From a candidate division TM6 bacterium UASB340 (GTDB lineage Bacteria; Babelota; Babeliae; Babelales; UASB340): DNA of 64,000 nucleotides. A program made the position numbers and the translations under genes. Positions 2,432 to 59,422 of this stretch are shown here, piece after piece; the stretch's first letter is position 1, and every line of letters begins with the position of its first letter. The notes under the pieces are model-generated. The model was not told the origin of the DNA and did no database searches. It saw only the letters and a list, made by a program, of their open reading frames with translations. The DNA lies in NCBI GenBank assembly GCA_001468925.1, contig LDIX01000003.1, forward strand, positions 3,018 to 67,017, given 5' to 3'.

Positions 2432-2507
2432 TGGTGGAGATGAGCGGAGTCGAACCGCTGGCCTTTCGCGTGCGATGCGAACGCTCTACCAACTGAGCTA
2501 CACCCCC
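2432..2507 (-). tRNA. tRNA-Ala (anticodon CGC)
   Basis: Manual cloverleaf of the reverse complement GGGGGTGTAGCTCAGTTGGTAGAGCGTTCGCATCGCACGCGAAAGGCCAGCGGTTCGACTCCGCTCATCTCCACCA. G3:U70 Ala identity pair, anticodon loop AT-CGC-AC, GTTCGACTC T-arm, encoded CCA. Confidence 0.9.
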
Positions 2508-2522
2508 GGAAATTATACTTAC

Positions 2523-2558
2523 AAAAAAACCACTGCGCTAACAGTGGTTAAATTTTTT
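2523..2558. terminator. Bidirectional intrinsic terminator (AACCACTG-cgctaa-CAGTGGTT, flanked by an A-run and a T-run)
   Basis: 8-bp stem. On the minus strand it reads AACCACUGUUAGCGCAGUGGUUUUUUU, downstream of tRNA-Ala(UGC). Confidence 0.6.
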
Positions 2559-2594
2559 ATTGGCTTATAAATTTTTTATAGATTGCTGGTCCGC

Positions 2595-2618
2595 CACACA
2601 TAGCCTTGGCGAAGTATG
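2595..2618 (-). repeat. GC-rich trailer hairpin, copy 2 (RNA sense CAUAC-UUC-GCC-AA-GGC-UAU-GUGUG)
   Basis: Starts inside the CCA of tRNA-Ala(UGC). Same architecture as the other copies, with a U-G wobble in the outer stem. Confidence 0.55.
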
Positions 2619-2692
2619 GTGGAGGTAAGCGGATTCGAACCGCTGGCCTTCCGCGTGCAAAGCGGACGCTCTACCAACTGAGCTATACCCCC
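2617..2692 (-). tRNA. tRNA-Ala (anticodon UGC)
   Basis: Reverse complement GGGGGTATAGCTCAGTTGGTAGAGCGTCCGCTTTGCACGCGGAAGGCCAGCGGTTCGAATCCGCTTACCTCCACCA. G3:U70 pair, anticodon loop TT-TGC-AC, encoded CCA. Confidence 0.92.
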
Positions 2693-2717
2693 GAAAATTT
2701 CAAATTTTCTGGCCTGT

Positions 2718-2741
2718 CATACGAAGCTTTAGCGAAGTATG
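2718..2741 (-). repeat. GC-rich trailer hairpin, copy 3 (RNA sense CAUAC-UUC-GC-UAAA-GC-UUC-GUAUG)
   Basis: 24-mer identical to 14350..14373. The first two nt are the CA of the tRNA-Ile CCA end. Confidence 0.65.
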
Positions 2742-2816
2742 GTGGGCCTAAGTAGACTCGAACTACTGACCTCTCCGTTATCAGCGGAGTGCTCTAACCA
2801 ACTGAGCTATAGGCCC
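2740..2816 (-). tRNA. tRNA-Ile (anticodon GAU)
   Basis: Reverse complement GGGCCTATAGCTCAGTTGGTTAGAGCACTCCGCTGATAACGGAGAGGTCAGTAGTTCGAGTCTACTTAGGCCCACCA. Perfect 7-bp acceptor stem, anticodon loop CT-GAT-AA, encoded CCA. Confidence 0.92.
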
Positions 2817-6223: not shown

Positions 6224-7381
6224 ATGAATAACAATAAAAAAAGTAAATTTAAATTATTTTTATTAATATCTATATTAATTCACTTAATATTGCTACTTAT
6301 TTTATTAACTCATGCATTCAAAAAAACAAGACGAGATTTAACTAAAATATTTTTTGTTAACGATAAAAAAGATTTACCCAAAGAAGAAGAGATTAAAAAA
6401 GCTCTCGAAAAGCTCAAAGAAGAAAAAAATCAAATAAAAAAAGAAGAAGAAAAAAAAGAAATAAAATTAGATGAAAGACCTGCAGCTTTAAAGCCAAGGA
6501 AATCAAACTTTGGAAACACAACATATTTTGATGAAGAGCCACAGTTTGTTCCGCCAATATCTGAAAAAATAGCAGAAAAAGCAGAACAAGAAAAATTCGA
6601 TGTAAAATCCGAAGAAGAAAAAATAATAGAACCTGATAAAATTTTAGAAAAAAAAGAAATAGTCGAAAACAAAGAACAAAAAAAAGAGATAACCCAAACA
6701 GATAAAGAATCTAAGTTTATAGAAAAAAAAGAACAGCAAGCAAAAACAACTCTTGAGCAAGATGCTCAAAAACAGGCTAAGCAAGATATAAAAAAAGAGA
6801 TTCAAGAGATAAAGAAACAAGAAGCAAAGCCAAAAGAAGTTAAAAAACAAGAAATAAAAATCACTCAAAATAAACCAAAAGAATCGCTAGAAAAAAAAGA
6901 AGAACTTAGAAACTTTGGCGTTGCGCTTCAAGATAAAAGCCCTGCACCAAAACCTAAAAAAAGTATATTACAATTAACCAAAGGGTTTTTATACAATAAC
7001 AAAGATGAAGGCCAAGATTGGATTAAACGTGATGGCGATGAAAATAAGCGTCCTGATTTTGAAGATTTAAAGCGCATATCTTATACACAACAAATTGCCT
7101 GGCAATTTCAGCAAGAGTCCGGAATTATTTCTTCACATATGTCATACAGCGAAAGAACGCACTTAATGGACGGATATTGTAATGAACCTAATTTACGCAT
7201 AGTTCTTAACAAAAATGGAAGTATTAAACAACTAGAATTAATAAACAGCTCCGGTTCAGTAAGATATGACGATTATATCGTAAAATGCTTTAAAAATGCC
7301 GCACCATTTCCACCAATACCAAATCATTTTAATAGTGATCAATTTGACCTACCTGTAACAATTATAAATCCATTAAGATAA
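6224..7381 (+). CDS. TonB/TolA-like protein: N-terminal TM anchor, long Lys/Glu-rich linker, TonB-C-like domain
   Basis: TM segment FKLFLLISILIHLILLLILL. The C-terminus LRIVLNKNGSIKQLELINSSGSVRYDDYIVKCFKNAAPFPPIP matches the G-x-V...SSG...D...A...F-P-P pattern of TonB C-terminal domains, judged from memory. Confidence 0.55.
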   Translation: MNNNKKSKFKLFLLISILIHLILLLILLTHAFKKTRRDLTKIFFVNDKKDLPKEEEIKKALEKLKEEKNQIKKEEEKKEIKLDERPAALKPRKSNFGNTTYFDEEPQFVPPISEKIAEKAEQEKFDVKSEEEKIIEPDKILEKKEIVENKEQKKEITQTDKESKFIEKKEQQAKTTLEQDAQKQAKQDIKKEIQEIKKQEAKPKEVKKQEIKITQNKPKESLEKKEELRNFGVALQDKSPAPKPKKSILQLTKGFLYNNKDEGQDWIKRDGDENKRPDFEDLKRISYTQQIAWQFQQESGIISSHMSYSERTHLMDGYCNEPNLRIVLNKNGSIKQLELINSSGSVRYDDYIVKCFKNAAPFPPIPNHFNSDQFDLPVTIINPLR

Positions 7382-7507
7382 TTTCTTTTGACATATGTCT
7401 TTTAGTCTGTTAAAGTCTTCATTGCTTTTAGGCAAATATTCGATCGAAATATGCATACACAGCAATTTTGTAAACGTCATAACGTATAAACAATACGGAG
7501 AATTTTT

Positions 7508-7750
7508 ATGAAAAAAATAATCGCATTAGCATTTGCATTTTCATTCGTAGGAACAATTTCAAATTTAATGGGCATGCAAAGAGTACTTAACCTAAGTACA
7601 CAGGAATGGGAAAATGTTCTTGTCATTAATGAAGATAAAAATTGTAAGCAAGATACCGCAATTAATTTAAATACGGGACAAGTAGTATTTCTTAATGGTA
7701 CCTATTTAAATGATAGCGGAAATACATACACCGATAAATACAACGATTAA
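7508..7750 (+). CDS. Small secreted hypothetical protein (80 aa)
   Basis: ACGGAGAA RBS, signal-peptide-like MKKIIALAFAFSFVGTISNLMG, and a strong terminator downstream. Confidence 0.5.
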   Translation: MKKIIALAFAFSFVGTISNLMGMQRVLNLSTQEWENVLVINEDKNCKQDTAINLNTGQVVFLNGTYLNDSGNTYTDKYND

Positions 7751-10294: not shown

Positions 10295-10381
10295 GCCGAA
10301 GTGGCGGAATTGGCAGACGCGCTAGATTCAGGGTCTAGTCTTTGAAAAAAGGTAGGGGTTCAACTCCCCTCTTCGGCACCA
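10295..10381 (+). tRNA. tRNA-Leu (anticodon CAG)
   Basis: GCCGAAGTGGCGGAATTGGCAGACGCGCTAGATTCAGGGTCTAGTCTTTGAAAAAAGGTAGGGGTTCAACTCCCCTCTTCGGCACCA. Perfect acceptor stem GCCGAAG/CTTCGGC, long variable arm, encoded CCA. It starts the nucleotide after the epimerase TAA. Confidence 0.92.
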
Positions 10382-14349: not shown

Positions 14350-14373
14350 CATACGAAGCTTTAGCGAAGTATG
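14350..14373 (-). repeat. GC-rich trailer hairpin, copy 5 (identical 24-mer to 2718..2741)
   Basis: CATACGAAGCTTTAGCGAAGTATG abuts and overlaps the CCA of tRNA-Leu(UAA). Confidence 0.65.
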
Positions 14374-14459
14374 GTGCCGAGGGCCGGAGTCGAACCGGCA
14401 CAGGTTTAAAACCCGAGGGATTTTAAGTCCCTTGCGTCTACCAATTCCGCCACCACGGC
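14372..14459 (-). tRNA. tRNA-Leu (anticodon UAA)
   Basis: Reverse complement GCCGTGGTGGCGGAATTGGTAGACGCAAGGGACTTAAAATCCCTCGGGTTTTAAACCTGTGCCGGTTCGACTCCGGCCCTCGGCACCA. Class II long variable arm, anticodon loop CT-TAA-AA. One U-U mismatch in the acceptor stem. Confidence 0.85.
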
Positions 14460-14529
14460 ACACATTAAACACTTAATATTATGTATATTTTTTCAATATT
14501 AGCAACATTTTTTTTAAAAAAGTGAAGAC

Positions 14530-14603
14530 TGGAGGCGGCACCCGGAATTGAACCGGGGATAACGGTTTTGCAGACCGCTGCCTTACCACTTGGCTATGCC
14601 GCC
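14530..14603 (-). tRNA. tRNA-Cys (anticodon GCA)
   Basis: Reverse complement GGCGGCATAGCCAAGTGGTAAGGCAGCGGTCTGCAAAACCGTTATCCCCGGTTCAATTCCGGGTGCCGCCTCCA. Perfect acceptor stem, U73 discriminator (a Cys identity element), encoded CCA. It starts the nucleotide after the miaB TAA. Confidence 0.92.
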
Positions 14604-39493: not shown

Positions 39494-42316
39494 CTAAAAA
39501 ACCTCTCCCAATGTTAGATACCATGAATAATTTGTATCATCAGGTAATAAATGTTTCCATTTAAAGCCCAGATCAAATCTAATTGAACCTATTGGAGTTT
39601 TATATCTTAATCCAAAACCGGTAGATGGATACCATTTTCCCCTAAAACCTGCAAAACCTGTCTGACTTAAAGCGCCAATATCCTGAAAAATTACACCGTG
39701 AAGTAATTTATATACCGGGAATCTTAACTCTAAATTGGCATTAAACATTCCACTACCACCCTGTATTGTATATTTTTTCTTTATTTTTCCATGTTCATCA
39801 ACATACTCTTCAACTCCATACGGCGGAATAGCATCTTTTTCATACCCTCTAACTGTAAAAGGTCCACCCAAAAAAAATCTTTGCGATGGCTGAATTGTAT
39901 TAAATGTAGAATTAAATATATACCCTAAACGAATTCTTAATGCTCCAATAATATCTTTGTAAAACGGCACAAAGAAAGAATGCTCAGTTGTTAATTTACC
40001 AATAGGCTTACCTTCACATTCGGGTATCATAAACCTAAAAGATGCAAAATTAATTGAACCTTTTTTTATATCAAGATGATCATTAATTTTTTCTACCACA
40101 AAACTTGGATTTATAAAAAAATACGGTAAAGTCTGATTTATTAGATGTCTATCCAAATTAATATTGCCACGAACTTTTTCCGTTCTAACCCATTCATTTC
40201 CAATTCCAAATCGCCAAAAATAATCCCTCTTAAACTCGTTATTAATACCAACTAAAATTCCATTTTCAATAGACTGATATGCAGATTGACTATTTTCTAC
40301 TTCAACAGGATTAATACTTTTATTTGAATAAACTTTTAATTTACCAATTACGCGAGAATCATCAAAATTTATTCCAAATGGCGATAACATTTTGTATTCA
40401 AAATCAAACTTTCTTTCAAATCGAGTTAGATCGACATTTAATGTAAATTTATCCAAATTATTTGTAGGATTATTAAAAATTAAGGAAGTTCCTACTCTAT
40501 ATGTTGATGCTTTTTTAAATAAAAAGTTTTTATTTGTTAAAAAATAACCAAATCTAAAAGCCGCTTCTATCGGTTCTTTATCTATTAATGTCAAATTTAT
40601 CGGAACAAATCCGGTGTCTCGACTTAGAGCTATTTCATTTGGTTCTATTTGAACCATTTTAAATAAATCTAATTTTTTTAAATTTTTACGAGTTAAATCC
40701 ATATTAAAAGAATCCCAAATATCACCTTCTTTAAATTTCAATTCTTTTAGAATTTTTTTAAAAGAAACTTTTGAATTTCCACGCAAATATGTAGGTCCAA
40801 ACTTAATTTGTGTGCCAAGATTTATTTTCCAAATCAAATTTATCTTAGTTTTTTTATCAACTAAAACTTCTTGCAATATTGGTTCTACAAGTGCATACCA
40901 ATACCCGAGTTTTTGCATTTTCTTTAAAATAAAATTTTTTTGTTCAAGTAACCAATAATAATCAAATGGCTTTAAATCTTGATCTGACAATTTTTGATAT
41001 TTATCAAAAAATTTTTTTGATAAAAAATTCAAATCCGGAATAATCTTAATATTTCCCAAGAAACGTTGCTCTCCCTTATTAATCGTTATTATAATATTAC
41101 AACTATTTTCTTTTGTATTTTTTTTAAAACTTTTATCTAAAATTTTAAAATCCCAGAATCCATTTTTTAAAAATCGATTTGTTAATTTATTTATAAATTG
41201 ATTTAACAAATTTTCGTCAAAAATTTTATTTTCCAATTCTTTAAAAATATCGGCTTCTTTTATTAAATTGTTTTCTAAATCTTTTACTAAAATATTGTTT
41301 ATAATTATTGGTAAATTTTCATTTATATTAAATAGAAAAGATCCGTCTTTTTGTTTTTTATAAAAAATTACGCTATCCCAATAACCTTTTTTATAATAAT
41401 TATCAAAAAGTTCCTGCGCTATAATTTCAGGTGTAAAAAACCACGATGGGTAATCTGTTCCTAAAAAATTTTGTCGTATATATTTTTCAGAAAAATTTTT
41501 ATTACCGGCAAATTCTAATTTTTGCTTTTTACCTAAATTAATATTAAAAATTAAGTCTAAAAAATTATTTTTTTTATAAATATTTTTTTTTATAATTATT
41601 TTGGGTTTAACAAAACCTAAAAATTTTAAATAATTTAAAAACTTTCTTGTACTCTTGGTTATATTTTCCTTTGTTGCAACCTTTTTGTTTAAATTTTTAA
41701 ATATTTTTGTCTGAAAAAAATTTGTAATTAATATAGTTTCATTCTCTGTACAAATATTTGGTGACAAATCAAAATTTATATTATTAATAAAAAATTTTTT
41801 ATTTCTTTTAATTTTTATATAAACAGATATTGTTTTATCTTTATTATAAACTAATTCGTCTTTTACAATACAATCGTAATACCCTTTAAATTTTAAATAT
41901 TCTATAATTTTATTTATTGCTAAACGATGTAAATCAATATCAAAATAATCGCCGGATTGCATTTTATAAAAGGCAGAATAATCATGTTTACCAAATAAAA
42001 CACCAATAATATAAATCTTTTTAAAAATCCAATTACCTTTTAAAGAAAAATGCACATGTTTACCATTATTCAAATTATCTGTTTTTATAATTATTTTTTC
42101 AAACCTACCTTTGGATTTTAAAATTTTTTTTGCATTTTTTATTTCTAAATCAGAAATAAAAGAATTTTGCTTCAATTTTGTAAGATATAAAAATTCGTAG
42201 TTAGAAAAATTTACATCAGAATCAAATGTTAATTTCTCCAGGAAAAATTTTTTTTCAGAATTACAGAAGAAATAAATTAAAAAATTTAATATAAAAAACT
42301 TAATCTTTAGATGCAT
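39494..42316 (-). CDS. bamA: outer membrane protein assembly factor BamA (Omp85 family), long form of 940 aa
   Basis: Signal sequence, long POTRA-like N-terminal region, and a C-terminal Omp85 barrel (RFFLGGPFTVRGY, GLRYKTPIGSIRFDLG) ending in the aromatic ...TLGEVF. Confidence 0.85.
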   Translation of the reverse strand: MHLKIKFFILNFLIYFFCNSEKKFFLEKLTFDSDVNFSNYEFLYLTKLKQNSFISDLEIKNAKKILKSKGRFEKIIIKTDNLNNGKHVHFSLKGNWIFKKIYIIGVLFGKHDYSAFYKMQSGDYFDIDLHRLAINKIIEYLKFKGYYDCIVKDELVYNKDKTISVYIKIKRNKKFFINNINFDLSPNICTENETILITNFFQTKIFKNLNKKVATKENITKSTRKFLNYLKFLGFVKPKIIIKKNIYKKNNFLDLIFNINLGKKQKLEFAGNKNFSEKYIRQNFLGTDYPSWFFTPEIIAQELFDNYYKKGYWDSVIFYKKQKDGSFLFNINENLPIIINNILVKDLENNLIKEADIFKELENKIFDENLLNQFINKLTNRFLKNGFWDFKILDKSFKKNTKENSCNIIITINKGEQRFLGNIKIIPDLNFLSKKFFDKYQKLSDQDLKPFDYYWLLEQKNFILKKMQKLGYWYALVEPILQEVLVDKKTKINLIWKINLGTQIKFGPTYLRGNSKVSFKKILKELKFKEGDIWDSFNMDLTRKNLKKLDLFKMVQIEPNEIALSRDTGFVPINLTLIDKEPIEAAFRFGYFLTNKNFLFKKASTYRVGTSLIFNNPTNNLDKFTLNVDLTRFERKFDFEYKMLSPFGINFDDSRVIGKLKVYSNKSINPVEVENSQSAYQSIENGILVGINNEFKRDYFWRFGIGNEWVRTEKVRGNINLDRHLINQTLPYFFINPSFVVEKINDHLDIKKGSINFASFRFMIPECEGKPIGKLTTEHSFFVPFYKDIIGALRIRLGYIFNSTFNTIQPSQRFFLGGPFTVRGYEKDAIPPYGVEEYVDEHGKIKKKYTIQGGSGMFNANLELRFPVYKLLHGVIFQDIGALSQTGFAGFRGKWYPSTGFGLRYKTPIGSIRFDLGFKWKHLLPDDTNYSWYLTLGEVF

Positions 42317-45268: not shown

Positions 45269-48160
45269 TTATTCATTAACTCTAATACCCCAATCTCCGG
45301 GAACAATCCAAGCACCGGATACCGTATTTAAAACCATTGCACCAGCATTATAAGAAGTACTTTCCAAATTCAAATTAATAGAAGCTTCAAATGCACGAAC
45401 ATTTCTTTGATTAGCTTGCATTCTAATCATTTTTAAATATTCAGTATTACCCAAATGTTTAGGCATTGTTGTAAATCCCATAGCACCATCAGTAATAAAA
45501 TTAGTTCTCAATTCACCTTGCGAATAAAAATAATCGGTTCCGGAATTTTCATTTATAGCTGTTATTACACCATCTTTTACATCAAATCTGTAAATTGTAG
45601 CCAAATTTAAAGAAAGATCTGCTGAAAGCGCATATAAGTTACCATTGGTTGTATATCCACCCTTTTGAATATCAATAAAACTTAAATGCGAAACAGGGGT
45701 AGAAAATAAAGAACCGGAATTTAATGAAACTTTTGTCCATACAGGAGTTTTATTTTCATCGGTATCATTTATAGCATTTGAATAAAATAAACCCTGAGTT
45801 GTTGCAACCAATAATCTTGTATCATTAACCTCACGTTTAAAACAAATCATATCAAGCAAATATCCTGGTGGCGGAGTAAGAGTTTTTTCATCCAAAGAGC
45901 TATTTGCAACATCTTTAAATTTTTCTTTATCCATCACAAATCTATAAATATTATCAAGAGTCATAACATAAAAATATGTACCGTTTGAATCGCCTACAAC
46001 TTTTCTAACCTGCGAAAAATTACCGATTTCTTTAAAGTCCCATGATGCCACTGTAGCCAAATCAACAGCAGCAGATCCAACTTGTCCATCCCAACCAGAA
46101 CCATCACTATTTCTAAGTACTGCCAATCCGTTAAATCCGCCAACAAATAACCAACCCTTTTCATCTTCTTGAGATCTTGAAACATCAGCACAACAAATAG
46201 GTCCCAAGTTATTAAGTGCAGTATCCTCAAACACATAAACATTTGTATCTTTTACAAATTGATCTTGTGTTGGAGTAAAAGCACCTCCGGCTGTTGCAGC
46301 TCCTGTTTTTATTAATACAACTTTTTTATAACCAAGTGCGGCCATAAAAGAAATCTTATCAGCTGCAGCTGTTCGTGCAATACTTTTAGTATTTTCATCA
46401 AAATTAAATATCTGGTGTACTCCGGCATTTGTTTGCAAAAATTCATCATTTAATAATTTTACCAGGCCATTTCCCATAAGGCCTGAATTTGCAGAACCTT
46501 TACCCCATTGGGTAACTTTTACAGTATTTTTATCACCGGACCCATCTTGTGTTAAGTACCAAAAATTGGCATTCATTATATCAAAACCGGATCCATAAAC
46601 TTTGTCTATATTTCCCATTACCCTCTGCCATGGTGTCCAAGCTCTTATGTAACCGTTTAAATCAAATATTGGATTACTTCTAAAAATTCCTGATTCATGA
46701 TTAACTGCAGATCTATCGGAAGCCACGCAAACATAAACAGCGTCATTTACTATAAATAAATCTGTAACATTATCTGTTGTTTGAATTGGCAAATCACCTG
46801 CACCAATGGTTGAAATTACCGCATCGGCACCTGAACTCAACGGCATTCCGGCATTATTTTGAACAATTAAATCTTTATTATTTTTGTCAGCAATTTTACC
46901 AATATTTTGGGCATCAACAGCTGTTCCATCACTTTTTTTAGATCCAAGAATTGGCAAGGCATAAATTTTATTTTTTATTTGAGAAACATCTGAAGAAATA
47001 GAACTATTAACAATTAAATAATTTTTATTGGTACTTGTAACCATAGTTTTTAATTTGTATGTATCAGCATGAACAGCTGTTGCAACAGTACTACTGTAAA
47101 ATCCAAAAATATTATTTGTTAAATCCGCATTAAATAAATTTTTGTCCAAAGTAACAGCTGGCTCAATGGTTAATTTATTACTGTCAAAACGCCCAACCAA
47201 TATTGAAACATCGCCTCCGGAAAGTGCATCATTTTCACGCGTTGCGCCAACAATTCCAATAAATAATCTTTGTAAATTTGAATCAAAATACATATCACCA
47301 AAACTAACAGTATTTCCGGCAGCTTGTTCAATTGCAAAAAGATCATCTGCCGTTATTTTCAATTGAACGGCTTTATTGCCATCGGTTCCATCTTGAGCAT
47401 TAACAGGTTGCAATTTACTATCTTTTTGTATTAATACCGCAAAGCCCCCATCGCCTGAGCCAAAATTAGCTGCATTTTGTTTTACAGCAGCAACTATTTT
47501 ATCCGATGTTGCAGCAAGGCCAACTACACCGGCTGTAGAATTTCCCGCGGCATCGTTTATCTGGTCAGTATTTGTTTTTACAGAACTTCCATCTGCAATA
47601 TTATCTATTAAACAAACAAGTTTTTGTGCATCAAAATTTGTACCATCAACTATAGTTGAATCTTGTAGAGTAACAACCGGATTACGTGATTGCAAAGTTA
47701 AAAGATCCACTCTTTTATCATAAACAGGATTTGTCTTTTTTACTAAAGCATCATTTTCTTTTATTCCATTTAGATATGCAGTACTTGCAGCTAAAGGTAT
47801 AAAACTTAAACTATTTGAATCTTGAATAGAACCTCTAATAAGTTTTACTCGAACAACAGCAGAAGATGACGGCAATGCAGAATCCGCTCCCAAATAAAAA
47901 TAATCAGCCCCGACAAAAGCAGTTTTTGCATAATTAACATCATCATCTATTTTTGCCAAATATCTGGTTATTTTTCCATCTTCGTCAGTTTTTTCCAAAG
48001 ACAGTAATGCTCTATATTCTTTAAATTCTTTAGGTAACTCTATCTTATCTTTTTCTTGATCCGTTATGGTAAACCTATTTATAACTAAATCTAAAGAAGC
48101 AAAAACATGACATGAAAAAATCGTGCTAATAATCAGAATAAATATATTACGCAACTTCAC
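45269..48160 (-). CDS. Large secreted/surface hypothetical protein (963 aa)
   Basis: GTG start with an AAGGAT RBS. Signal peptide MKLRNIFILIISTIFSCHVFA. Gly/Ser/Thr/Asn/Asp-rich beta-type composition. No C-terminal barrel signature and no family recognised. Confidence 0.6.
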   Translation of the reverse strand: MKLRNIFILIISTIFSCHVFASLDLVINRFTITDQEKDKIELPKEFKEYRALLSLEKTDEDGKITRYLAKIDDDVNYAKTAFVGADYFYLGADSALPSSSAVVRVKLIRGSIQDSNSLSFIPLAASTAYLNGIKENDALVKKTNPVYDKRVDLLTLQSRNPVVTLQDSTIVDGTNFDAQKLVCLIDNIADGSSVKTNTDQINDAAGNSTAGVVGLAATSDKIVAAVKQNAANFGSGDGGFAVLIQKDSKLQPVNAQDGTDGNKAVQLKITADDLFAIEQAAGNTVSFGDMYFDSNLQRLFIGIVGATRENDALSGGDVSILVGRFDSNKLTIEPAVTLDKNLFNADLTNNIFGFYSSTVATAVHADTYKLKTMVTSTNKNYLIVNSSISSDVSQIKNKIYALPILGSKKSDGTAVDAQNIGKIADKNNKDLIVQNNAGMPLSSGADAVISTIGAGDLPIQTTDNVTDLFIVNDAVYVCVASDRSAVNHESGIFRSNPIFDLNGYIRAWTPWQRVMGNIDKVYGSGFDIMNANFWYLTQDGSGDKNTVKVTQWGKGSANSGLMGNGLVKLLNDEFLQTNAGVHQIFNFDENTKSIARTAAADKISFMAALGYKKVVLIKTGAATAGGAFTPTQDQFVKDTNVYVFEDTALNNLGPICCADVSRSQEDEKGWLFVGGFNGLAVLRNSDGSGWDGQVGSAAVDLATVASWDFKEIGNFSQVRKVVGDSNGTYFYVMTLDNIYRFVMDKEKFKDVANSSLDEKTLTPPPGYLLDMICFKREVNDTRLLVATTQGLFYSNAINDTDENKTPVWTKVSLNSGSLFSTPVSHLSFIDIQKGGYTTNGNLYALSADLSLNLATIYRFDVKDGVITAINENSGTDYFYSQGELRTNFITDGAMGFTTMPKHLGNTEYLKMIRMQANQRNVRAFEASINLNLESTSYNAGAMVLNTVSGAWIVPGDWGIRVNE

Positions 48161-53093: not shown

Positions 53094-55391
53094 TTATTGT
53101 TCTTTTTGTTTCTCATCTGCTACCGTAGGTAAAACTGGTTGTACTTTTTTAAATACACTTTCTACCTTACGTTTTATAGCAGCAATAATCGCATCTTTAT
53201 TTTGATTAATTGCATACTGCATAATTCCAGATAATAAATTAAAGTTTTCTTTTGTATACGCAAAAATATACGTTGAACAAAATCCAGATTTAGTTTCTTT
53301 TTCAGGATCAAAATTAGAATTAAATTTATCATTTTTTAGTAAACCGCAATAGATTACCGTTGGCACATCTGCATCTTTCAAATTTTCAAGAATAAGAACC
53401 GGATTTTGACGAAGAGCTTCAATATTTTTATTATTTTCTTTTTGTTTATCAATTTCCGGAAATTTAAAATTATGATGTTCACACCATTTTTTTAAATTTC
53501 TAACCGGATTAACATTTCTACTTAAACCTTCAGGATCGGCATCACATAAAAATATTACATGCGGTTTTCGTCTTATATATGGAGATAATGGAAATCCTGA
53601 AATTTCACCTGCATCAACAAGCTGAAAATTTTCTAAATTTTTAACGCTCGAAAGATTTGGATTGTCCATATTTTTTACAGGATTAAAAACTATTGCCGGC
53701 CAAACTCTATTTTCATCCAAACCAGTTGGATCAACAAATTTATTAAATATTTTTTTTGCTTTTTCAGGCCAACCTCTTACACCAAGATTTTTTCTTATTG
53801 TTAATGCAAAGGCGGACCCAAATGTACCCATATAAAAACCAATTCGTTCTTCTCTAGAATAATCAATCGCCTTACCCTTATTAAATTTTCTACCAAATGC
53901 CCAAGTGGGAACATAAAAATCAAGTTTATTCGCTCCAATTTGATAAGGTGTAAATTCAAACCAATAATCTCTATCTCCGGGATTTATAGCGGTTAATATT
54001 GGCATTGGCATTTTACCGTCTTTTAGACTCTCTGCTAAATCTGATAAATATGTATGTTTATCGGCTCTCCAAAATTTATTTTCAAGAACTTCTCCATAAA
54101 AATCAATAAAATTTACTGATTTACCATATAATTTTTTAACAATCAAATTTTCAAGAATTATATTCGGATCAAAAATACCAAGCCATAAATTATGCTCCGT
54201 TTTTTCTTGAACAAACTTTTTCTGTTCTAAAGGATTTTTACCATAATAAATCCATGGACACAGATACCATGTTGATCCAGAAATACCTGAGCTATATGTT
54301 ATTAAATCCAACAACCCGGTCTCTTCCAATCCGGCATAAAAACCCGCATTTGCAATCATAGCTCTATAACCGCCACCGCTACTTGCTACAGTAACAATAA
54401 AATCTTTATCTATGTTTATTGAAGAATCCAATTTTAGTAATTTTTTTATCCCATCTTTAACAATAACCTGTCGTTTTTTTAAAAATTCACTTTCTTCTTT
54501 ACATAATTCCGGACCAACAGAAACTTGTGCCTCCCGAGAATCCATTTTAATCGTTTTTCTTAACGAATCGACCAAACTATTAATTGCACTCGAAATCACA
54601 GTAGCTGCAGCCATAACTTCTTTACTACGATATGAATTTAATTTTCCATTATCATCCACAGCTATATAAAAATCATCACCCATTCCAACGCCAATACCAG
54701 CATTTATAGTATTCTGAACACTTCGTTTATCTAACTCATCCTTTATCTCTTTCTTTGTTTCTGAAAAAAATAATTTTCTTTCAGATAATGGTTTTAATTT
54801 TGGTAGATCAAACATAACATTTTTATTAGGTGCAATCTCTTTGACATCACTAGATCGCTTTGCAGTTGCTCCGGTTTTATAATATGTAGCAGCATAAAGA
54901 GGAGAATCCGTTTCATTGTAAACTATAATTGATTTAGCGTTATCAGCATAAGCACTTTTGCCTAATTTATCTGAAAAATTTTCTGCTAACTTAGTTTCGC
55001 CCTTTTTGTTTGTTGTAAATATTTTTCTGCGTAAATTACCACCTATAAATCCAATTTCTATAGTTGTCACTTTATCATTTTCTATAGAAATATTATCTGA
55101 CCAAATACGTTTTTCTAATAAAGATCCGTCTTTTATATCAAAAGCTTCAACCGAAAGATCTGAGATATCTCTTGCGGCTAAGCCTTTTCTTCCTGTAGAA
55201 ATAACACGACTAGATTCACCGGGTTTATTAAGTGTAATAGATTTCCAGTCTTCACCTGACGGCTTATAATTTATTATTAATTTATAATTATTTGTAACGT
55301 TGTGAAACTTAACACCCTCTTGCGCAAAAATAGTTTGTACAAAAATTGCTGCCCAAATCCAACATAAGATTAATTTATTTTTAAATATCAT
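53094..55391 (-). CDS. Secreted cytosolic-PLA2-type (PLA2_B / group IV-like) phospholipase with novel N-terminal domains
   Basis: Signal peptide MIFKNKLILCWIWAAIFVQTIFA. Catalytic-domain landmarks in order: LCKEESEFLKKRQ, SGGGYRAM (GGGxR), GISGSTWY (GxSGS), WFEFTPYQIG, GTFGSAFA, VDAGEISG (DxG). A GGAGA RBS precedes the ATG at 55391. Confidence 0.8.
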   Translation of the reverse strand: MIFKNKLILCWIWAAIFVQTIFAQEGVKFHNVTNNYKLIINYKPSGEDWKSITLNKPGESSRVISTGRKGLAARDISDLSVEAFDIKDGSLLEKRIWSDNISIENDKVTTIEIGFIGGNLRRKIFTTNKKGETKLAENFSDKLGKSAYADNAKSIIVYNETDSPLYAATYYKTGATAKRSSDVKEIAPNKNVMFDLPKLKPLSERKLFFSETKKEIKDELDKRSVQNTINAGIGVGMGDDFYIAVDDNGKLNSYRSKEVMAAATVISSAINSLVDSLRKTIKMDSREAQVSVGPELCKEESEFLKKRQVIVKDGIKKLLKLDSSINIDKDFIVTVASSGGGYRAMIANAGFYAGLEETGLLDLITYSSGISGSTWYLCPWIYYGKNPLEQKKFVQEKTEHNLWLGIFDPNIILENLIVKKLYGKSVNFIDFYGEVLENKFWRADKHTYLSDLAESLKDGKMPMPILTAINPGDRDYWFEFTPYQIGANKLDFYVPTWAFGRKFNKGKAIDYSREERIGFYMGTFGSAFALTIRKNLGVRGWPEKAKKIFNKFVDPTGLDENRVWPAIVFNPVKNMDNPNLSSVKNLENFQLVDAGEISGFPLSPYIRRKPHVIFLCDADPEGLSRNVNPVRNLKKWCEHHNFKFPEIDKQKENNKNIEALRQNPVLILENLKDADVPTVIYCGLLKNDKFNSNFDPEKETKSGFCSTYIFAYTKENFNLLSGIMQYAINQNKDAIIAAIKRKVESVFKKVQPVLPTVADEKQKEQ

Positions 55392-55408
55392 GAATTTCTC
55401 CAAAATTT

Positions 55409-57169
55409 TTATTTTTTATTCGAATCTTGTTTAAAAAAATCTTTATTTATTCCAAAAAAGCCAGGCCTTCTCGCATCAAAACGACTTTTATTTTCAGAAA
55501 ATTTAAAATCATCAAAATTTATATTTAAATTAGGGTTATGAAATTTTTCTATTGCTGTCGAATTAAGATAATTAATAATTTGCATAGAATTGCCAAGATG
55601 TACTTGATCCAGATTTATCATATTTGGGAATCGACCTTTCATAAATCCGGAACCTTGAAACCCATTTTTGTAAAAATGTTTTATAAGTTTAAACAAAATA
55701 TCTTGATTTATTACTTCATAATCAAGATCAAAATATAATTTTACATTTCTGAATGCTTTAATAAATTCAGATTCTGCATTTCGCCAATTTAATTTACTTA
55801 AATCCGACCAATCTTTTTTAGACCAATCTATTTTTTTTATTCCTTCCGATATAAAATGAGATGCACGTTCCAATAATTCTCCCGGAAATAAATTTATTCC
55901 AAACAAATATCTCATTTCAGGATTTGCCAGTTTTTTTGTTTCAGATCGCTCTGAATAAAGTTTATCTTTCAAATCTATAATGCCATACATATTTGATTTT
56001 TGAATTTTAAACTGATCAAAAGCATAATCAGTTTCATCACCACTGGTCCAAACAACAACTCTTTTACCATTTTCTTTCATCCAATTAATCGTTGGCCATT
56101 CGCCCTTTTTTTCAAAAATATTCCAATCTGATGGTTTTAAAACCATATTGCCAATACCTGAAGCTATAATAGATTTATCTGTTGATTCTTTATCGATATA
56201 ACTTTCAAGTTCTATACATAAAATTTCATTTGGATTTTTATCTAAAAGAGATTTTAATATTCTTAAACTTTCTTGAAATGTCATAGTAACATATTTTTGA
56301 TATTTATCTGTTTTAAAAGTATCATATGCTCTTTTAATAAAATTAATAAGACTAAATTCACCATCAAATCTTAATATCGGACCAAGCTTACATTCACCAT
56401 GGCAAAGTTTTACTTCTACCGGACGCTCACTTCTCTTTATATGAACATTTTTGCCAGGTTCTGTTGGGTAGCAATCAAGCAAAAAACATCTTACACCCAT
56501 ATCAAATTGCTTTTCTAAAGAATAATATTGCTGATTATAAAATCTATAACCATAGGCATAAGAAGAAAAAGAATTATGTGACGCTAAAAGCGTAATTTTA
56601 TCCAAACTTAAACTTGGATCCGGCAACTCCCATTTATCAAGATCAATAGATTTATTAATGTGTTTAAAGCTACCATTAAATAATGAATCTGCCAAAATAT
56701 TTAAATGCGTTAACTTTGAAATAGCTCCATAATGTTGTAAATAATCTTCTTTAACTTTATCTTTAATTACAACCTTTCTTGCTAAAATTAATTTATTGTT
56801 AAGTCGCTTGTCTATTTCTATTTTATCATCGTTTTTCATAGTAAAATAAACTTCTGTTGTTTTTCCATTTTCAATAGAAATATTTGTAGACCAAAGTCCA
56901 ATATCAATAGGCGCATAATCTTGTGCTCCAAATATGGAAACAACCATATCAGCAATATCGGCAGAACCTAAGCCTTTTTTAACAGTTAATATACCTCCAC
57001 TATCTTTTCGTGGATTTAGTTTTACAATTTTCCAATCATCCAGTCCGGATATTTTGTAGCTTATATTTAAGATATAATTATCTGTTTCATTATGAAATCT
57101 AACATTACCGACATCTGCAAAAATATTTATCGAAAAAAAAAGAACTAAAATTAACAATATTTTTTTCAT
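55409..57169 (-). CDS. Secreted PI-PLC X-domain-like phosphodiesterase sharing its N-terminal module with the neighbouring lipase
   Basis: Signal peptide MKKILLILVLFFSINIFA. LLASHNSF, FYNQQ, MGVRCFLLDCY, KLCHGEC and NPNEILCIELESYI resemble plant/protist PI-PLC-X-only proteins, from memory. A TAGGAGAT RBS precedes the ATG at 57169. Confidence 0.65.
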   Translation of the reverse strand: MKKILLILVLFFSINIFADVGNVRFHNETDNYILNISYKISGLDDWKIVKLNPRKDSGGILTVKKGLGSADIADMVVSIFGAQDYAPIDIGLWSTNISIENGKTTEVYFTMKNDDKIEIDKRLNNKLILARKVVIKDKVKEDYLQHYGAISKLTHLNILADSLFNGSFKHINKSIDLDKWELPDPSLSLDKITLLASHNSFSSYAYGYRFYNQQYYSLEKQFDMGVRCFLLDCYPTEPGKNVHIKRSERPVEVKLCHGECKLGPILRFDGEFSLINFIKRAYDTFKTDKYQKYVTMTFQESLRILKSLLDKNPNEILCIELESYIDKESTDKSIIASGIGNMVLKPSDWNIFEKKGEWPTINWMKENGKRVVVWTSGDETDYAFDQFKIQKSNMYGIIDLKDKLYSERSETKKLANPEMRYLFGINLFPGELLERASHFISEGIKKIDWSKKDWSDLSKLNWRNAESEFIKAFRNVKLYFDLDYEVINQDILFKLIKHFYKNGFQGSGFMKGRFPNMINLDQVHLGNSMQIINYLNSTAIEKFHNPNLNINFDDFKFSENKSRFDARRPGFFGINKDFFKQDSNKK

Positions 57170-57366
57170 AAAAACATCTCCTATCAAAAATTTATTAACC
57201 CATTAAAAAAACTTTTGGGGATTTTAAAATATTTAAATAATAAAAAGCAATATATTTTTTAAAAAATAATTTTCATGATTAATATTTTAAAATTTGCATT
57301 TAAATAAAACTCTAATCTAAAATTAAAAGTATAAAAATTTTAAAATATTAAGCTTGGGGAATTTAT

Positions 57367-58485
57367 ATGAAAAAAATATTAACGATAGGCGGTTCAACGC
57401 AAGACATCTATCTTAGATATGATGGTGCCGATTATATGACAATTAACCAAAAATCATGTGAATCAAAATATATTCTTTTAAAATCAGGCGACAAAATAGA
57501 AGTTGATAATATTTTATATTTTACCGGTGGAGGCGCTACCAATTCCGCCGTATCTTTTAAAAGACTGGGTTTTGATGTTTCATGTTTTACAAAAATAGGC
57601 ACCGATCAAGCCGGTCAACAAGTTATAGATGATTTAACAAGTGAAAATATAAATTGCAAAAGTATAATAAAAACAAAAGAAATTCAAACCGGAACATCAT
57701 TTGTCATACATACTACATCAAAAGAAAGAACCATATTTGCTTATCGCGGTGCAAACGGTTTTATAAAAAAAAGTGAAATACCGTTTGATGTTATGAAAAA
57801 ATCTGACCAGATATATATTACATCGCTAAGCCATCATTCTTCGCAAATTTTGCCTGAAATAGTAAAATTCGCACATAAAAATAAAATTAAAGTAGCAATT
57901 AACCCGGGTATAAGCCAATTAGCACATGGAACATTAAAATTAAAAGAATCTTTAAAATATATAAACACTTTGATTATGAACAGCGATGAAGCAAAATCAT
58001 TTATGATCGCGCTAATAGAAAATGATAAAATATATAAAGAAATTTTAAAAGAATCCAAATGTGAAAACGTTTGTATACAAGATAATTTAATTAAACCTGT
58101 GTTACTGGAAAAACCAATATTGCATCAAGATTACTATTTTAGTATTCGAAAATTTTTTAAAGAAACACTAAAAATGGGTCCTGAAATTGTTGTAATCACA
58201 GATGGCGCCAATGGAGTTTACGCTGCATACAAAAATAAAATATATTTTCACCCAAGCATAAAAACTCAAATAACAGATACATTGGGTGCAGGCGATGCTT
58301 TTGGGTCATGTTTTGTAGCAAGTTTACTTTCGGGTAAAAATATAAAGCAAGCTCTGTTTAACGGCATTACAAACAGCTCATCAGTTATAGAAAAAATGGG
58401 AGCAAAACCGGGGCTTTTAACAAAAAAACAACTCAATTCAAAAAAAATAAATTTAAAATTAATTAAAGAGTTCAATCTTGATTAA
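57367..58485 (+). CDS. PfkB-family carbohydrate/nucleoside kinase with an internal insertion
   Basis: FTGGGATNSAV and the PfkB signature-2-like DTLGAGDAFGS. At 372 aa it is about 50-60 aa longer than typical ribokinases. Confidence 0.8.
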   Translation: MKKILTIGGSTQDIYLRYDGADYMTINQKSCESKYILLKSGDKIEVDNILYFTGGGATNSAVSFKRLGFDVSCFTKIGTDQAGQQVIDDLTSENINCKSIIKTKEIQTGTSFVIHTTSKERTIFAYRGANGFIKKSEIPFDVMKKSDQIYITSLSHHSSQILPEIVKFAHKNKIKVAINPGISQLAHGTLKLKESLKYINTLIMNSDEAKSFMIALIENDKIYKEILKESKCENVCIQDNLIKPVLLEKPILHQDYYFSIRKFFKETLKMGPEIVVITDGANGVYAAYKNKIYFHPSIKTQITDTLGAGDAFGSCFVASLLSGKNIKQALFNGITNSSSVIEKMGAKPGLLTKKQLNSKKINLKLIKEFNLD

Positions 58486-59422
58486 AATAAATTTATTTTC
58501 AAAGAAAATATTGCTAATTAAAATACAAGAAAAAACTATAATCATATCGCAATTAATAGATCAAAATGATAAATACAAATTATTTAACACCCAAAAAATA
58601 GCTTTAGATAATTTAGAAACTTTAGATAATAAATTATTTAACTTCTCGCAAATATTTTTAATCGTAAAAACTTACTTAAATTATTTTAAAATAAAAAAAG
58701 CAAAAGCTATAATAACTTTGGAAAAAGCGCCAACAGATTTAATGCTTTTACAAATAGTTTTACTTATATCTAAAACCGGTTTAAAAATTGCAAAAATTAT
58801 AAATTTGAACAATTTAACGAAAGACGATAATATGCTTAACTTTTTAAATAAAAAAGAAATTGATAATAATCTTGATTTTTTCAAACAATTTGAAAAACCA
58901 AATAAAAAAATTAATATTTTTTATTTTTTTATAATTTTATTATTTACGAGCATTGAAATAATTTTTTTTTCAGAGACTTTAAAACAAAAAAATATTTCAA
59001 TTAAAAATCTTGAAACACAAATAAACACTATTTCACTTCAAACGCAAACAATAAAAAAAGAATTAAAAATCAAACAAGATTTAACTGCCAAAAACGAAAT
59101 TTTGGCAAAAAATATAAAAAAAATAGAACTGCATAAAATCAAAAACCAAAAATTATACTCAATTTTATCGAGCTTACCCCAAATACTTCCAAAACAAACT
59201 AAATTAACAAAAATAGCTTTTGATAAAAATGCTAAACATAAAAAACAACTATTGCTTTTAGGCCAAAGCTTAAAACAAGAAGAAATCTCTATTTTTGCCC
59301 AAAATTTGGAAAAAAATATAAATTTTAAAAAAGTAAAACTATTAAATATACAAAAAGAAAAAAAAGCTGCCCTGGAATCAGTTTATAATTTCAAAATCAA
59401 TTGTCTTATAAAAAGTCAATAA
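58478..59422 (+). CDS. Hypothetical bitopic membrane protein with a coiled coil (weak PilN-like flavour)
   Basis: TTG start overlapping the kinase stop by 8 nt. Central TM INIFYFFIILLFTSIEIIFF followed by a Lys/Gln/Ile-rich heptad region. The N-terminal KINLF is only vaguely like the PilN INLLP motif. Confidence 0.4.
   Translation: MIKINLFSKKILLIKIQEKTIIISQLIDQNDKYKLFNTQKIALDNLETLDNKLFNFSQIFLIVKTYLNYFKIKKAKAIITLEKAPTDLMLLQIVLLISKTGLKIAKIINLNNLTKDDNMLNFLNKKEIDNNLDFFKQFEKPNKKINIFYFFIILLFTSIEIIFFSETLKQKNISIKNLETQINTISLQTQTIKKELKIKQDLTAKNEILAKNIKKIELHKIKNQKLYSILSSLPQILPKQTKLTKIAFDKNAKHKKQLLLLGQSLKQEEISIFAQNLEKNINFKKVKLLNIQKEKKAALESVYNFKINCLIKSQ

Follow-up and report, generated by a model that had tools for sequence, protein, structure and literature searches.

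In a stretch of 64,000 nucleotides from the candidate division TM6 (Dependentiae) bacterium UASB340 (hereafter the window), we found two neighbouring genes whose predicted exported products begin with the same kind of N-terminal module and continue into two different catalytic domains: a phospholipase C (PLC)-like domain in the protein that we call p2, and a lipase domain of the cytosolic phospholipase A2 (cPLA2) type in the protein that we call p1. We lean slightly towards the view that the module co-localises the predicted PLC-like and PLA2 activities at a target membrane, where they would break down host phospholipids. To our knowledge, Dependentiae, which are widespread parasites of protists, have hardly any cultured members, and none of their virulence factors has been defined experimentally; the Dependentiae genome literature that we found does not describe phospholipases. 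With p1 and p2, known kinds of enzyme gain new members, while the module and its shuffling constitute a new variant and no new principle. Homologues are designated below by P-numbers and the contigs of relatives by L-numbers.

The catalytic domain of p1 (765 aa; gene at positions 53094..55391 of the window, minus strand) matched the Pfam family PLA2_B (PF01735) over residues 333–617 with an E-value of 3.2e-29 and 102.2 bits, against a cutoff of 23, and p1 matched human cPLA2α (PDB 1CJY) with E=3.8e-34. SGGGYRAM and GISGSTWY of p1 align with SGGGFRAM and GLSGSTWY of 1CJY, stretches that include Arg200 and the Ser228 nucleophile. The p1 motifs are LCKEESEFLKKRQ (residue 296), GGGYR (339), GISGS (369), WFEFTPYQIG (477), GTFGSAFA (522) and VDAGE (592), all within a domain that we delimit, from PF01735 and the 1CJY alignment, at residues 286–750 (53142..54536). 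R343, S371, D593 and G595 (D593-x-G595) do not vary among 20 aligned bacterial homologues. That Asp593 corresponds to Asp549 of cPLA2α is read from motif and spacing, outside the printed HMMER alignment. We take p1 to be a genuine PLA2_B/cPLA2-type Ser-Asp lipase, with a predicted Ser371/Asp593 dyad and with Arg343 of GGGxR and the oxyanion hole. The original prediction, made from the letters of the window, had called p1 a cPLA2-like lipase without a C2 domain, which these matches and the invariant catalytic residues bear out; every motif that it quoted was found, in collinear order, in p1 and p2.

Indeed, a Pfam search found no C2 domain in p1, whose N-terminus consists instead of the module and a further domain, the pre-PLA2 domain (residues 150–285, 54537..54944). 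The latter takes the position held by C2 in cPLA2. According to a hidden Markov model (HMM) of this domain, about 48 of about 110 PLA2_B homologues carry it directly behind the signal peptide, with the module absent, and we regard it, on this distribution, as the native, clade-typical N-terminal domain of Dependentiae PLA2_B. It has no Pfam match, occurs within the series P0003–P0075, and is present in up to three tandem copies in P0047 and P0061. We rejected the view that the pre-PLA2 domain and the module diverged from a single domain (hhalign probability of 5.8%).

The bacterial PLA2_B proteins, of which all named ones are from Dependentiae/TM6, form one clade with 100% bootstrap support, well apart from the fungal and vertebrate sequences, in a neighbour-joining (NJ) tree of limited sampling from which a direction of transfer is not derivable. 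Members of this clade, 24–40% identical to p1, occur in no fewer than 43 genomes at species level, whose labels read Dependentiae, Babeliales, TM6 or 'uncultured', and within the searches run the cPLA2-type lipase clade occurs outside eukaryotes only in Dependentiae. The next relatives beyond it are vertebrate cPLA2s and proteins of fungi in the Mucoromycota and Glomeromycota. By far the greater part of the PLA2_B family is eukaryotic, the catalytic motifs of p1 are near-identical to those of cPLA2α, and eukaryotic PLCs alone gave fold hints of a non-trivial kind for p2; together with those next relatives, these observations would suit a recent transfer, in which catalytic domains taken from the present host were grafted onto a private bacterial domain to give a genome-specific effector pair, as had originally been proposed. 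However, the PLA2_B clade is single, deep and spread over all these species, GC content is even across the locus (about 28–30%), and the genes lie in conserved housekeeping synteny, not in an island. Furthermore, no eukaryotic homologue of the PLC-like family is detectable and the module is not private (see below). By the refuting condition set out with the original prediction, a recent acquisition from a host is refuted, and we consider a recent origin of this kind hardly credible. A transfer from a eukaryote to Dependentiae is plausible for PLA2_B only, and it would have been ancient, and not from the current host, because one old clade spans at least 43 Dependentiae species.

The modules of p1 (residues 25–119, 55035..55319) and p2 (residues 21–116, 56822..57109) are 46% identical over 102 aa (BLASTP E=3e-18), and the likeness starts inside the signal peptide. 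Their Smith–Waterman score was 184, as compared with 29.2±5.3 (maximum 63) in 2000 shuffles (z=29). An HMM of the module matched p1 at residues 26–119 (i-E 6e-26) and p2 at residues 21–116 (i-E 7e-31), the only two copies in the 64-kb window. The expectation that both proteins share an N-terminal module thus withstood the shuffle control. At the DNA level, the 5′ ends of the two genes share just 65.8% identity over ~350 nt of AT-rich sequence (66% over the 5′ 350 nt). The duplication behind the two modules is thus not recent, and we rejected a young tandem duplication as their source.

An AlphaFold2 (AF2) model of the module, built from an eight-copy alignment, is a seven-strand all-β sandwich (pLDDT 92.9, pTM 0.83). 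A Foldseek search of PDB and BFVD gave no match at E<1e-3 (best 4.6e-3 in PDB and 2.6e-3 in BFVD, TM≤0.59), and the best matches were generic Ig/FN3/CBM-like sandwiches, with neither C2 nor PLAT among them. The module profile returned nothing meaningful from PDB chain sequences, and no Pfam family recurred across the eight module copies. A DUF5718 match on p2 (E=0.006) was dismissed as chance, since it is absent across the other module copies, and a PEGA-like identity was rejected as well (hhalign 16.5% over 19 columns). Because no significant Pfam, PDB or structural match was obtained, the module is, as far as sequence and model tell, an uncatalogued, lineage-restricted β-sandwich domain family of ~95 aa and a candidate Pfam family.

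When 1.84 billion cluster representatives were searched with the module HMM, 24 proteins matched at E<1e-3, of which about 18 clusters are genuine; the named module-bearing clusters are all from Dependentiae/TM6. Multi-repeat matches (P0122, P0125, P0132–P0134 and P0136) were discarded as spurious artefacts of repeat proteins. In every genuine member the first module copy starts at residue 21–29, directly behind the leader, and what follows varies: a PLC-like domain (behind one or two modules), the probably dead PLC-like domain of P0119, a second PLA2_B in P0126, or a ~360-aa domain in P0120. Other members have arrays of two to four copies ahead of a transmembrane or coiled-coil region (P0117/118, P0121/123/129–131 and P0127/128), or are stand-alone module proteins of ~150 aa (P0124 and P0135). 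Every close PLC-like relative has the module; only the distant P0116 is without it. The module is, therefore, not private to the pair, as had been thought, since the HMM finds these Dependentiae clusters with varied payloads; the accompanying claim that it was grafted onto different catalytic payloads holds, for PLC-like, PLA2_B and other domains. The payload of P0120/P0138 (residues ~130–483, from the metagenome-assembled genome (MAG) ABIF12_02415) has no Pfam match, and the same MAG also encodes an ordinary PLA2, P0005 (ABIF12_03570).

We favour a binding or positioning role for the module, because tandem, membrane-anchored and stand-alone forms of it occur. Its place behind the leader is also typical of the propeptides of secreted hydrolases, and a basic linker after the module (LRRK, KRL) offers a possible processing site, as expected if the module were a pro-domain that served as intramolecular chaperone or inhibitor and kept the lipases inactive until its cleavage after export. 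Yet stand-alone and multi-copy forms, and payloads that are non-enzymatic or dead, such as those of P0121 and P0119, fit poorly with such a pro-domain, and we find this explanation very improbable.

The genes for p2 and p1 are best read as a two-gene operon, with p2 upstream and p1 downstream, because the gap between them is 17 nt (spacer 55392..55408, minus strand) and no terminator-like site was found there in our scan. Promoter and terminator scans of the locus gave scores no higher than those of shuffled sequences. The mechanical list of open reading frames (ORFs) has upstream TTG starts, giving 53094..55403 and 55409..57187, both on the minus strand. The ATG codons at 55391 (p1) and 57169 (p2) appear to be the better choice, because each has a Shine–Dalgarno motif at a proper distance: GGAG at 55398–55401, inside the intergenic spacer, with a 6-nt spacing for p1, and AGGAG at 57178–57182 with an 8-nt spacing for p2. 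From the p2 stop codon (TAA, 55409–55411) it is 17 nt to the ATG of p1.

Both leaders, read by eye, have the layout of Sec-type signal peptides, with Lys residues, a hydrophobic run and IFA; direct reading revealed no lipobox in either. In p2 the signal peptide covers residues 1–18 (57116..57169) and ends after MKKILLILVLFFSINIFA, before D (mature start DVG), and all homologues begin alike. In p1 it covers residues 1–23 (55323..55391) and ends after MIFKNKLILCWIWAAIFVQTIFA, before Q (mature start QEG), where BLASTP likeness to p2 starts. Searches of p1 and p2 against NCBIfam and PHROGs gave no matches.

The operon lies divergent from the gene of a PfkB kinase and convergent with lon, and the synteny of this slot, with pfkB on one side and lon-ABC-murJ on the other, extends over four genomes: those of the window, L001, L003 and L004. 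In the window the slot holds the PLC-like and PLA2 genes separately. In L001 it holds a single fusion of 1233 aa (P0002), with the order signal peptide, module, PLC, pre-PLA2, PLA2. The L004 slot has a PLC-like gene with two modules, and that of L003 (2188–4890, P0115, GCA_014728525.1) encodes a PLC-like protein with an N-terminal Lys/Glu-rich extension, two modules and C-terminal pentapeptide repeats. A further contig of 4.3 kb without flanks (L005) encodes the PLC P0114 and, after an 11-nt gap, the PLA2 P0126, which has its own leader and a module. Two enzymes forming a functionally linked pair, as originally envisaged, are thus found as a 17-nt-gap operon in the window, as an 11-nt tandem in L005 and as one fused polypeptide in P0002. 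In L004, two small ORFs (79 and 81 aa, without Pfam match) lie at 7123–7702, in the place of the window's PLA2 gene, with the PLC-like gene and lon on either side; neither matched the module or PLC HMMs.

In an NJ bootstrap tree of 95 columns, the only tree method applied to the modules, the module copies fell into a 'type a' (97%), comprising P0113a, P0115a, P0120, P0124 and P0126, and a PLC-proximal 'type b' (80%), comprising p2, P0002, P0114, P0113b, P0115b, P0119 and p1; the p2 module clades with those of P0002, P0114 and P0113b at 89%. The PLC-linked PLA2s (p1, the C-terminal half of P0002, and P0126) form a 100% clade that is sister to the ordinary PLA2s in the NJ tree, and among 43 PLA2-bearing species genomes a PLC gene or module was found within 6 kb only in the genome with the fusion. 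Because the three PLC-linked PLA2s form one such clade, and the other species have no PLC or module nearby, PLA2 appears to have joined the PLC locus once, with the module added to PLA2. By these trees PLA2 got the module in three ways: through a type-b copy nearest that of its neighbour (window), through a type-a copy (L005), and through fusion behind PLC (P0002). Three separate couplings suggest that selection has acted to couple PLA2 to the module and to PLC.

These three ways in three genomes look as if PLA2 needed the module for delivery, and could indicate that the module serves as a tag for export or sorting, a folded N-terminal domain read in the periplasm by an outer-membrane translocation or vesicle-loading machinery with a logic like that of the C-terminal domain of the type IX secretion system; the cargo regulon would then include both lipases. 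The position of the first module, right after the leader at residue 21–29 whatever the payload, and the lack of relationship among the payloads point the same way, and a PilN-like gene adjoins the locus. However, arrays of two to four copies, internal copies and stand-alone forms of 150 aa speak for binding or spacer domains rather than for sorting tags. About 42 further Dependentiae species export members of this PLA2 clade that lack the module, and no dedicated machinery was found nearby. We judge a sorting tag of this kind unlikely, and retain the binding or positioning role for the module.

Membership of p2 (586 aa; gene at 55409..57169, minus strand, called from its ORF and the ATG with AGGAG) in the PLC-like phosphodiesterase superfamily is quite likely. 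Its PLC-like catalytic region (residues 125–551, 55517..56797) was delimited from invariant columns, weak Pfam matches and precomputed annotation, and includes LLASHNSF (residue 194), FYNQQ (210), MGVRCFLLDCY (224), KLCHGEC (254) and NPNEILCIELESYI (312). Invariant in the family are H198 and N199 (SHNS), R227 and D232 (GVRCFLLDC), H257 (LCHG), and E320 and E322 (IELE), which sit at predicted β-strand ends in an AF2 model of low confidence (pLDDT 45). The fold is probably a TIM barrel, with His198/His257 as a candidate two-His acid/base pair accompanied by Asn199, Arg227, Asp232 and Glu320/322.

In all six relatives of p2, the PI-PLC-X family (PF00388) gave sub-threshold matches to the same part of the model (13.8–17.5 bits, E=0.003–0.045), and the distant member P0116 matched PF16670 (Ca2+-dependent PI-PLC, that is, phosphatidylinositol-specific PLC) with E=6e-5. 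Precomputed annotations include PF26146 ('PI-PLC_X') and PF26178 ('Rv2075c_cat') for p2 (P0111), at a strength not stated, both at E≤1e-5 for P0113, PF26178 at E≤1e-5 with a weak PF26146 for P0114, and both as weak or faint for P0002 and P0115; the precomputed annotation is the source for both families, since our own hmmscan runs returned neither model, not even at E≤10 with P0113 and P0114 as queries. Foldseek with the pLDDT-45 model gave nothing at E<0.05, and a probability above 0.5 only for PLCγ2 and PLCζ, weakly. When the family was aligned by hhalign with an X-box of PLCδ1, the probability was 8.9% over 16 columns, covering one strand only, too low to be of use. The use of a consensus sequence brought no gain over p2 itself in the detection of Pfam PI-PLC-X. 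As regards the canonical PI-PLC-X family, p2 shows a weak resemblance only.

The PLC-like family numbers about 8 sequences among 5.8 billion, all derived from MAGs or metagenomes, and every named one is from Dependentiae/TM6; P0112–P0115 and P0002 are orthologues of p2 with 41–72% identity. No eukaryotic homologue was detectable in the homologue searches. A eukaryotic origin of this gene, which the original prediction had considered probable, found no support, and the likeness that it saw to X-only proteins of plants and protists found no counterpart among the homologues. A variable, Lys-, Glu- and Leu-rich insertion of ~25–43 aa is present between ERSExKK and KYLxAINLFPG (alignment columns ~640–685) in P0113, P0114, P0115 and P0002, and missing from p2 and P0112. 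P0119/P0137 (KKP24498.1, from candidate division TM6 bacterium GW2011_GWF2_28_16) has the module and a PLC-like domain in which SHN reads ARN and CHG is lost, and is probably a catalytically dead paralogue (pseudoenzyme).

The hosts of cultured Dependentiae are protists. Cultured members are obligate intracellular parasites, and Dependentiae rely on Sec export, encode many proteins with signal peptides, have no lipid synthesis and are thought to use host lipids (PMC6561590). In the scheme that we slightly favour, p1 and p2 would be exported by the Sec machinery, and the exported module would act as an extracytoplasmic binding or positioning domain through which the two enzymes meet on one membrane surface. 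This would most likely be a host vacuolar or organelle membrane, reached possibly by way of the bacterial surface or vesicles. There, p2 would remove head groups and p1 acyl chains in cooperation, and the resulting breakdown of host phospholipids would serve to rupture the membrane, to scavenge lipids, or both. The scheme builds on the observed gene structure, on the PLA2_B identity and catalytic residues of p1, on a real module with its fold class, distribution and shuffling, and on the synteny, the fusion and the clades; the enzymatic activity of p2, export past the periplasm, the ligand of the module and the host target are what we infer.

Several observations weigh against the scheme. The match of p2 to PF00388 is sub-threshold (E=0.03, 14.4 bits against a cutoff of 23.1), the PLC-like family profile and P0116 retrieved nothing meaningful from PDB chain sequences, and the AF2 model of the PLC-like domain, from a six-sequence alignment, failed (pLDDT 45). 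The proposal that p2 is PI-PLC-X-like has weak support from its motifs and the precomputed PF26146/PF26178 matches, but none from this Pfam score, from any PDB relative or from the structure model. Not all PLC-like members are enzymes, because P0119 is without the catalytic His residues. The fold of the module carries no functional pointer, with no C2, PLAT or CBM match at E<1e-3 and with conserved positions that look mostly structural, and the column number and single method of the module trees have to be counted here too. In a diderm cell, which the organism is by its BamA, a signal peptide alone delivers to the periplasm only, and we identified no route of export across the outer membrane. 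Of the 'secreted effector' in the original prediction, the Sec-type leaders stand, while secretion past the periplasm does not follow, since in such a cell the leader guarantees the periplasm alone. The BamA/Omp85 gene, with POTRA repeats, is at 39494–42316 (minus strand). Finally, the genes around the locus have envelope and housekeeping functions (MurJ, LolD and Lon), a setting that would also suit enzymes working on lipids of the bacterium itself.

In such a role, both enzymes would act on the envelope of the bacterium itself, in the turnover or remodelling of periplasmic phospholipids or on imported host lipids, and the module would be a periplasmic scaffold or spacer. Default delivery to the periplasm and the neighbouring envelope genes (MurJ and a LolD-like ABC protein) agree with it, as does the need of Dependentiae, which have no lipid synthesis, to process host lipids (PMC6561590). 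However, the lipase genes evolve far faster than their neighbours: they are 43–47% identical to their orthologues, as compared with 65–84% for the housekeeping genes around them, a rate of change that would be typical of host-interaction proteins. The PLC-like gene, moreover, is confined to a handful of genomes and its architecture differs among close relatives, again the pattern of host interaction. We think an own-envelope role improbable, and prefer action of the pair on host membranes.

Among the other genes of the window, the PilN-like gene (58478–59422, plus strand) lies beside pfkB, adjacent to the lipase operon, and is kept in relatives at 32–36% identity only. A signal-peptide protein of 963 aa without Pfam match is encoded at 45269–48160 (minus strand), and is syntenic 3′ of murJ in L001, L003 and L004 at 54–57% identity; a Ser/Thr kinase gene stands between murJ and the gene of this protein in L001, L003 and L004 and is missing in the window, where the gap is 93 nt. 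Six tRNA genes (Ala-CGC, Ala-UGC, Ile-GAU, Leu-CAG, Leu-UAA and Cys-GCA) are found at 2432–2816 (minus strand), 10295–10381 (plus strand) and 14372–14603 (minus strand), and the Ile-GAU/Ala-UGC pair looks like the arrangement in the spacer of an rRNA operon.

A phylum-wide clade of cPLA2-type lipases bears on how lipid-auxotrophic bacteria break or harvest host membranes, and on ancient gene flow between eukaryotes and bacteria. The repeated tie of a very rare PLC-like family to a lipase, by operon or fusion, predicts that the two act cooperatively. The module marks a set of exported proteins and is shuffled between payloads in close genomes, which makes it a tractable case of modular effector evolution. 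As a bolder and doubtful, though possible, extension, the module may be the 'address label' of a Dependentiae-specific system for delivery or host targeting, and PLC and PLA2 a two-step membrane-demolition device for vacuole escape or lipid harvest, with the PLA2 descending from an ancient capture of a eukaryotic cPLA2-type enzyme. If so, a signal peptide followed by the module would mark exported host-interaction factors, and would provide the first sequence handle on the effector repertoire of Dependentiae.

Lipases with an accessory β-sandwich domain that binds membranes are known, namely cPLA2 with its C2 and the Clostridium perfringens alpha-toxin with its PLAT-like domain, and p1 and p2 resemble them in the combination of a catalytic lipase domain with a small all-β domain. 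Unlike C2 and PLAT, the module is N-terminal, forms tandem arrays, accompanies non-lipase payloads, and has no evident signature of a Ca2+-binding loop and no Foldseek match to C2 or PLAT. The catalytic domain of p1 is collinear with those of cPLA2α (1CJY) and of the fungal lysophospholipases or phospholipases B (PLBs) of PF01735, with GGGxR, GxSGS and DxG in common. Eukaryotic PLA2_B enzymes are cytosolic or, in the case of fungal PLBs, secreted. In contrast, p1 is bacterial, predicted to be exported by Sec, without C2, preceded by the module and the pre-PLA2 domain, and placed in a separate Dependentiae clade.

In p2, the order SHN, GxRxxxLDC, CHG, IELE parallels SSHNTY, GCRCxELDCWDG, HG and SLENH, which we take to be the corresponding motifs of PLCδ, and of which only the second was aligned by hhalign. 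Unlike PLCδ, p2 has Leu in GVRCFLLDC at the position of the Ca2+ ligand Glu341. From the PI-PLC X-box families it differs by scores below the PF00388 and PF16670 thresholds, by a catalytic region of ~430 aa with a variable coiled-coil insertion, and by a family of about 8 members.

As a pair, p1 and p2 are reminiscent of cooperating bacterial phospholipases such as PlcA (a PI-PLC) and PlcB of Listeria, and of the patatin-like effectors ExoU and VipD. Like these, they would be exported and would have complementary bond specificities on host membranes, which for our pair is a prediction; ExoU and VipD, moreover, use Ser-Asp dyad chemistry as cPLA2 does. The pair in the window differs from ExoU and VipD in that its PLA2 is a true PLA2_B and not a patatin, in that its proteins have a Sec leader instead of passing through a type III or type IV secretion system, and in that its two enzymes are coupled by operon or fusion and share a targeting-like module.

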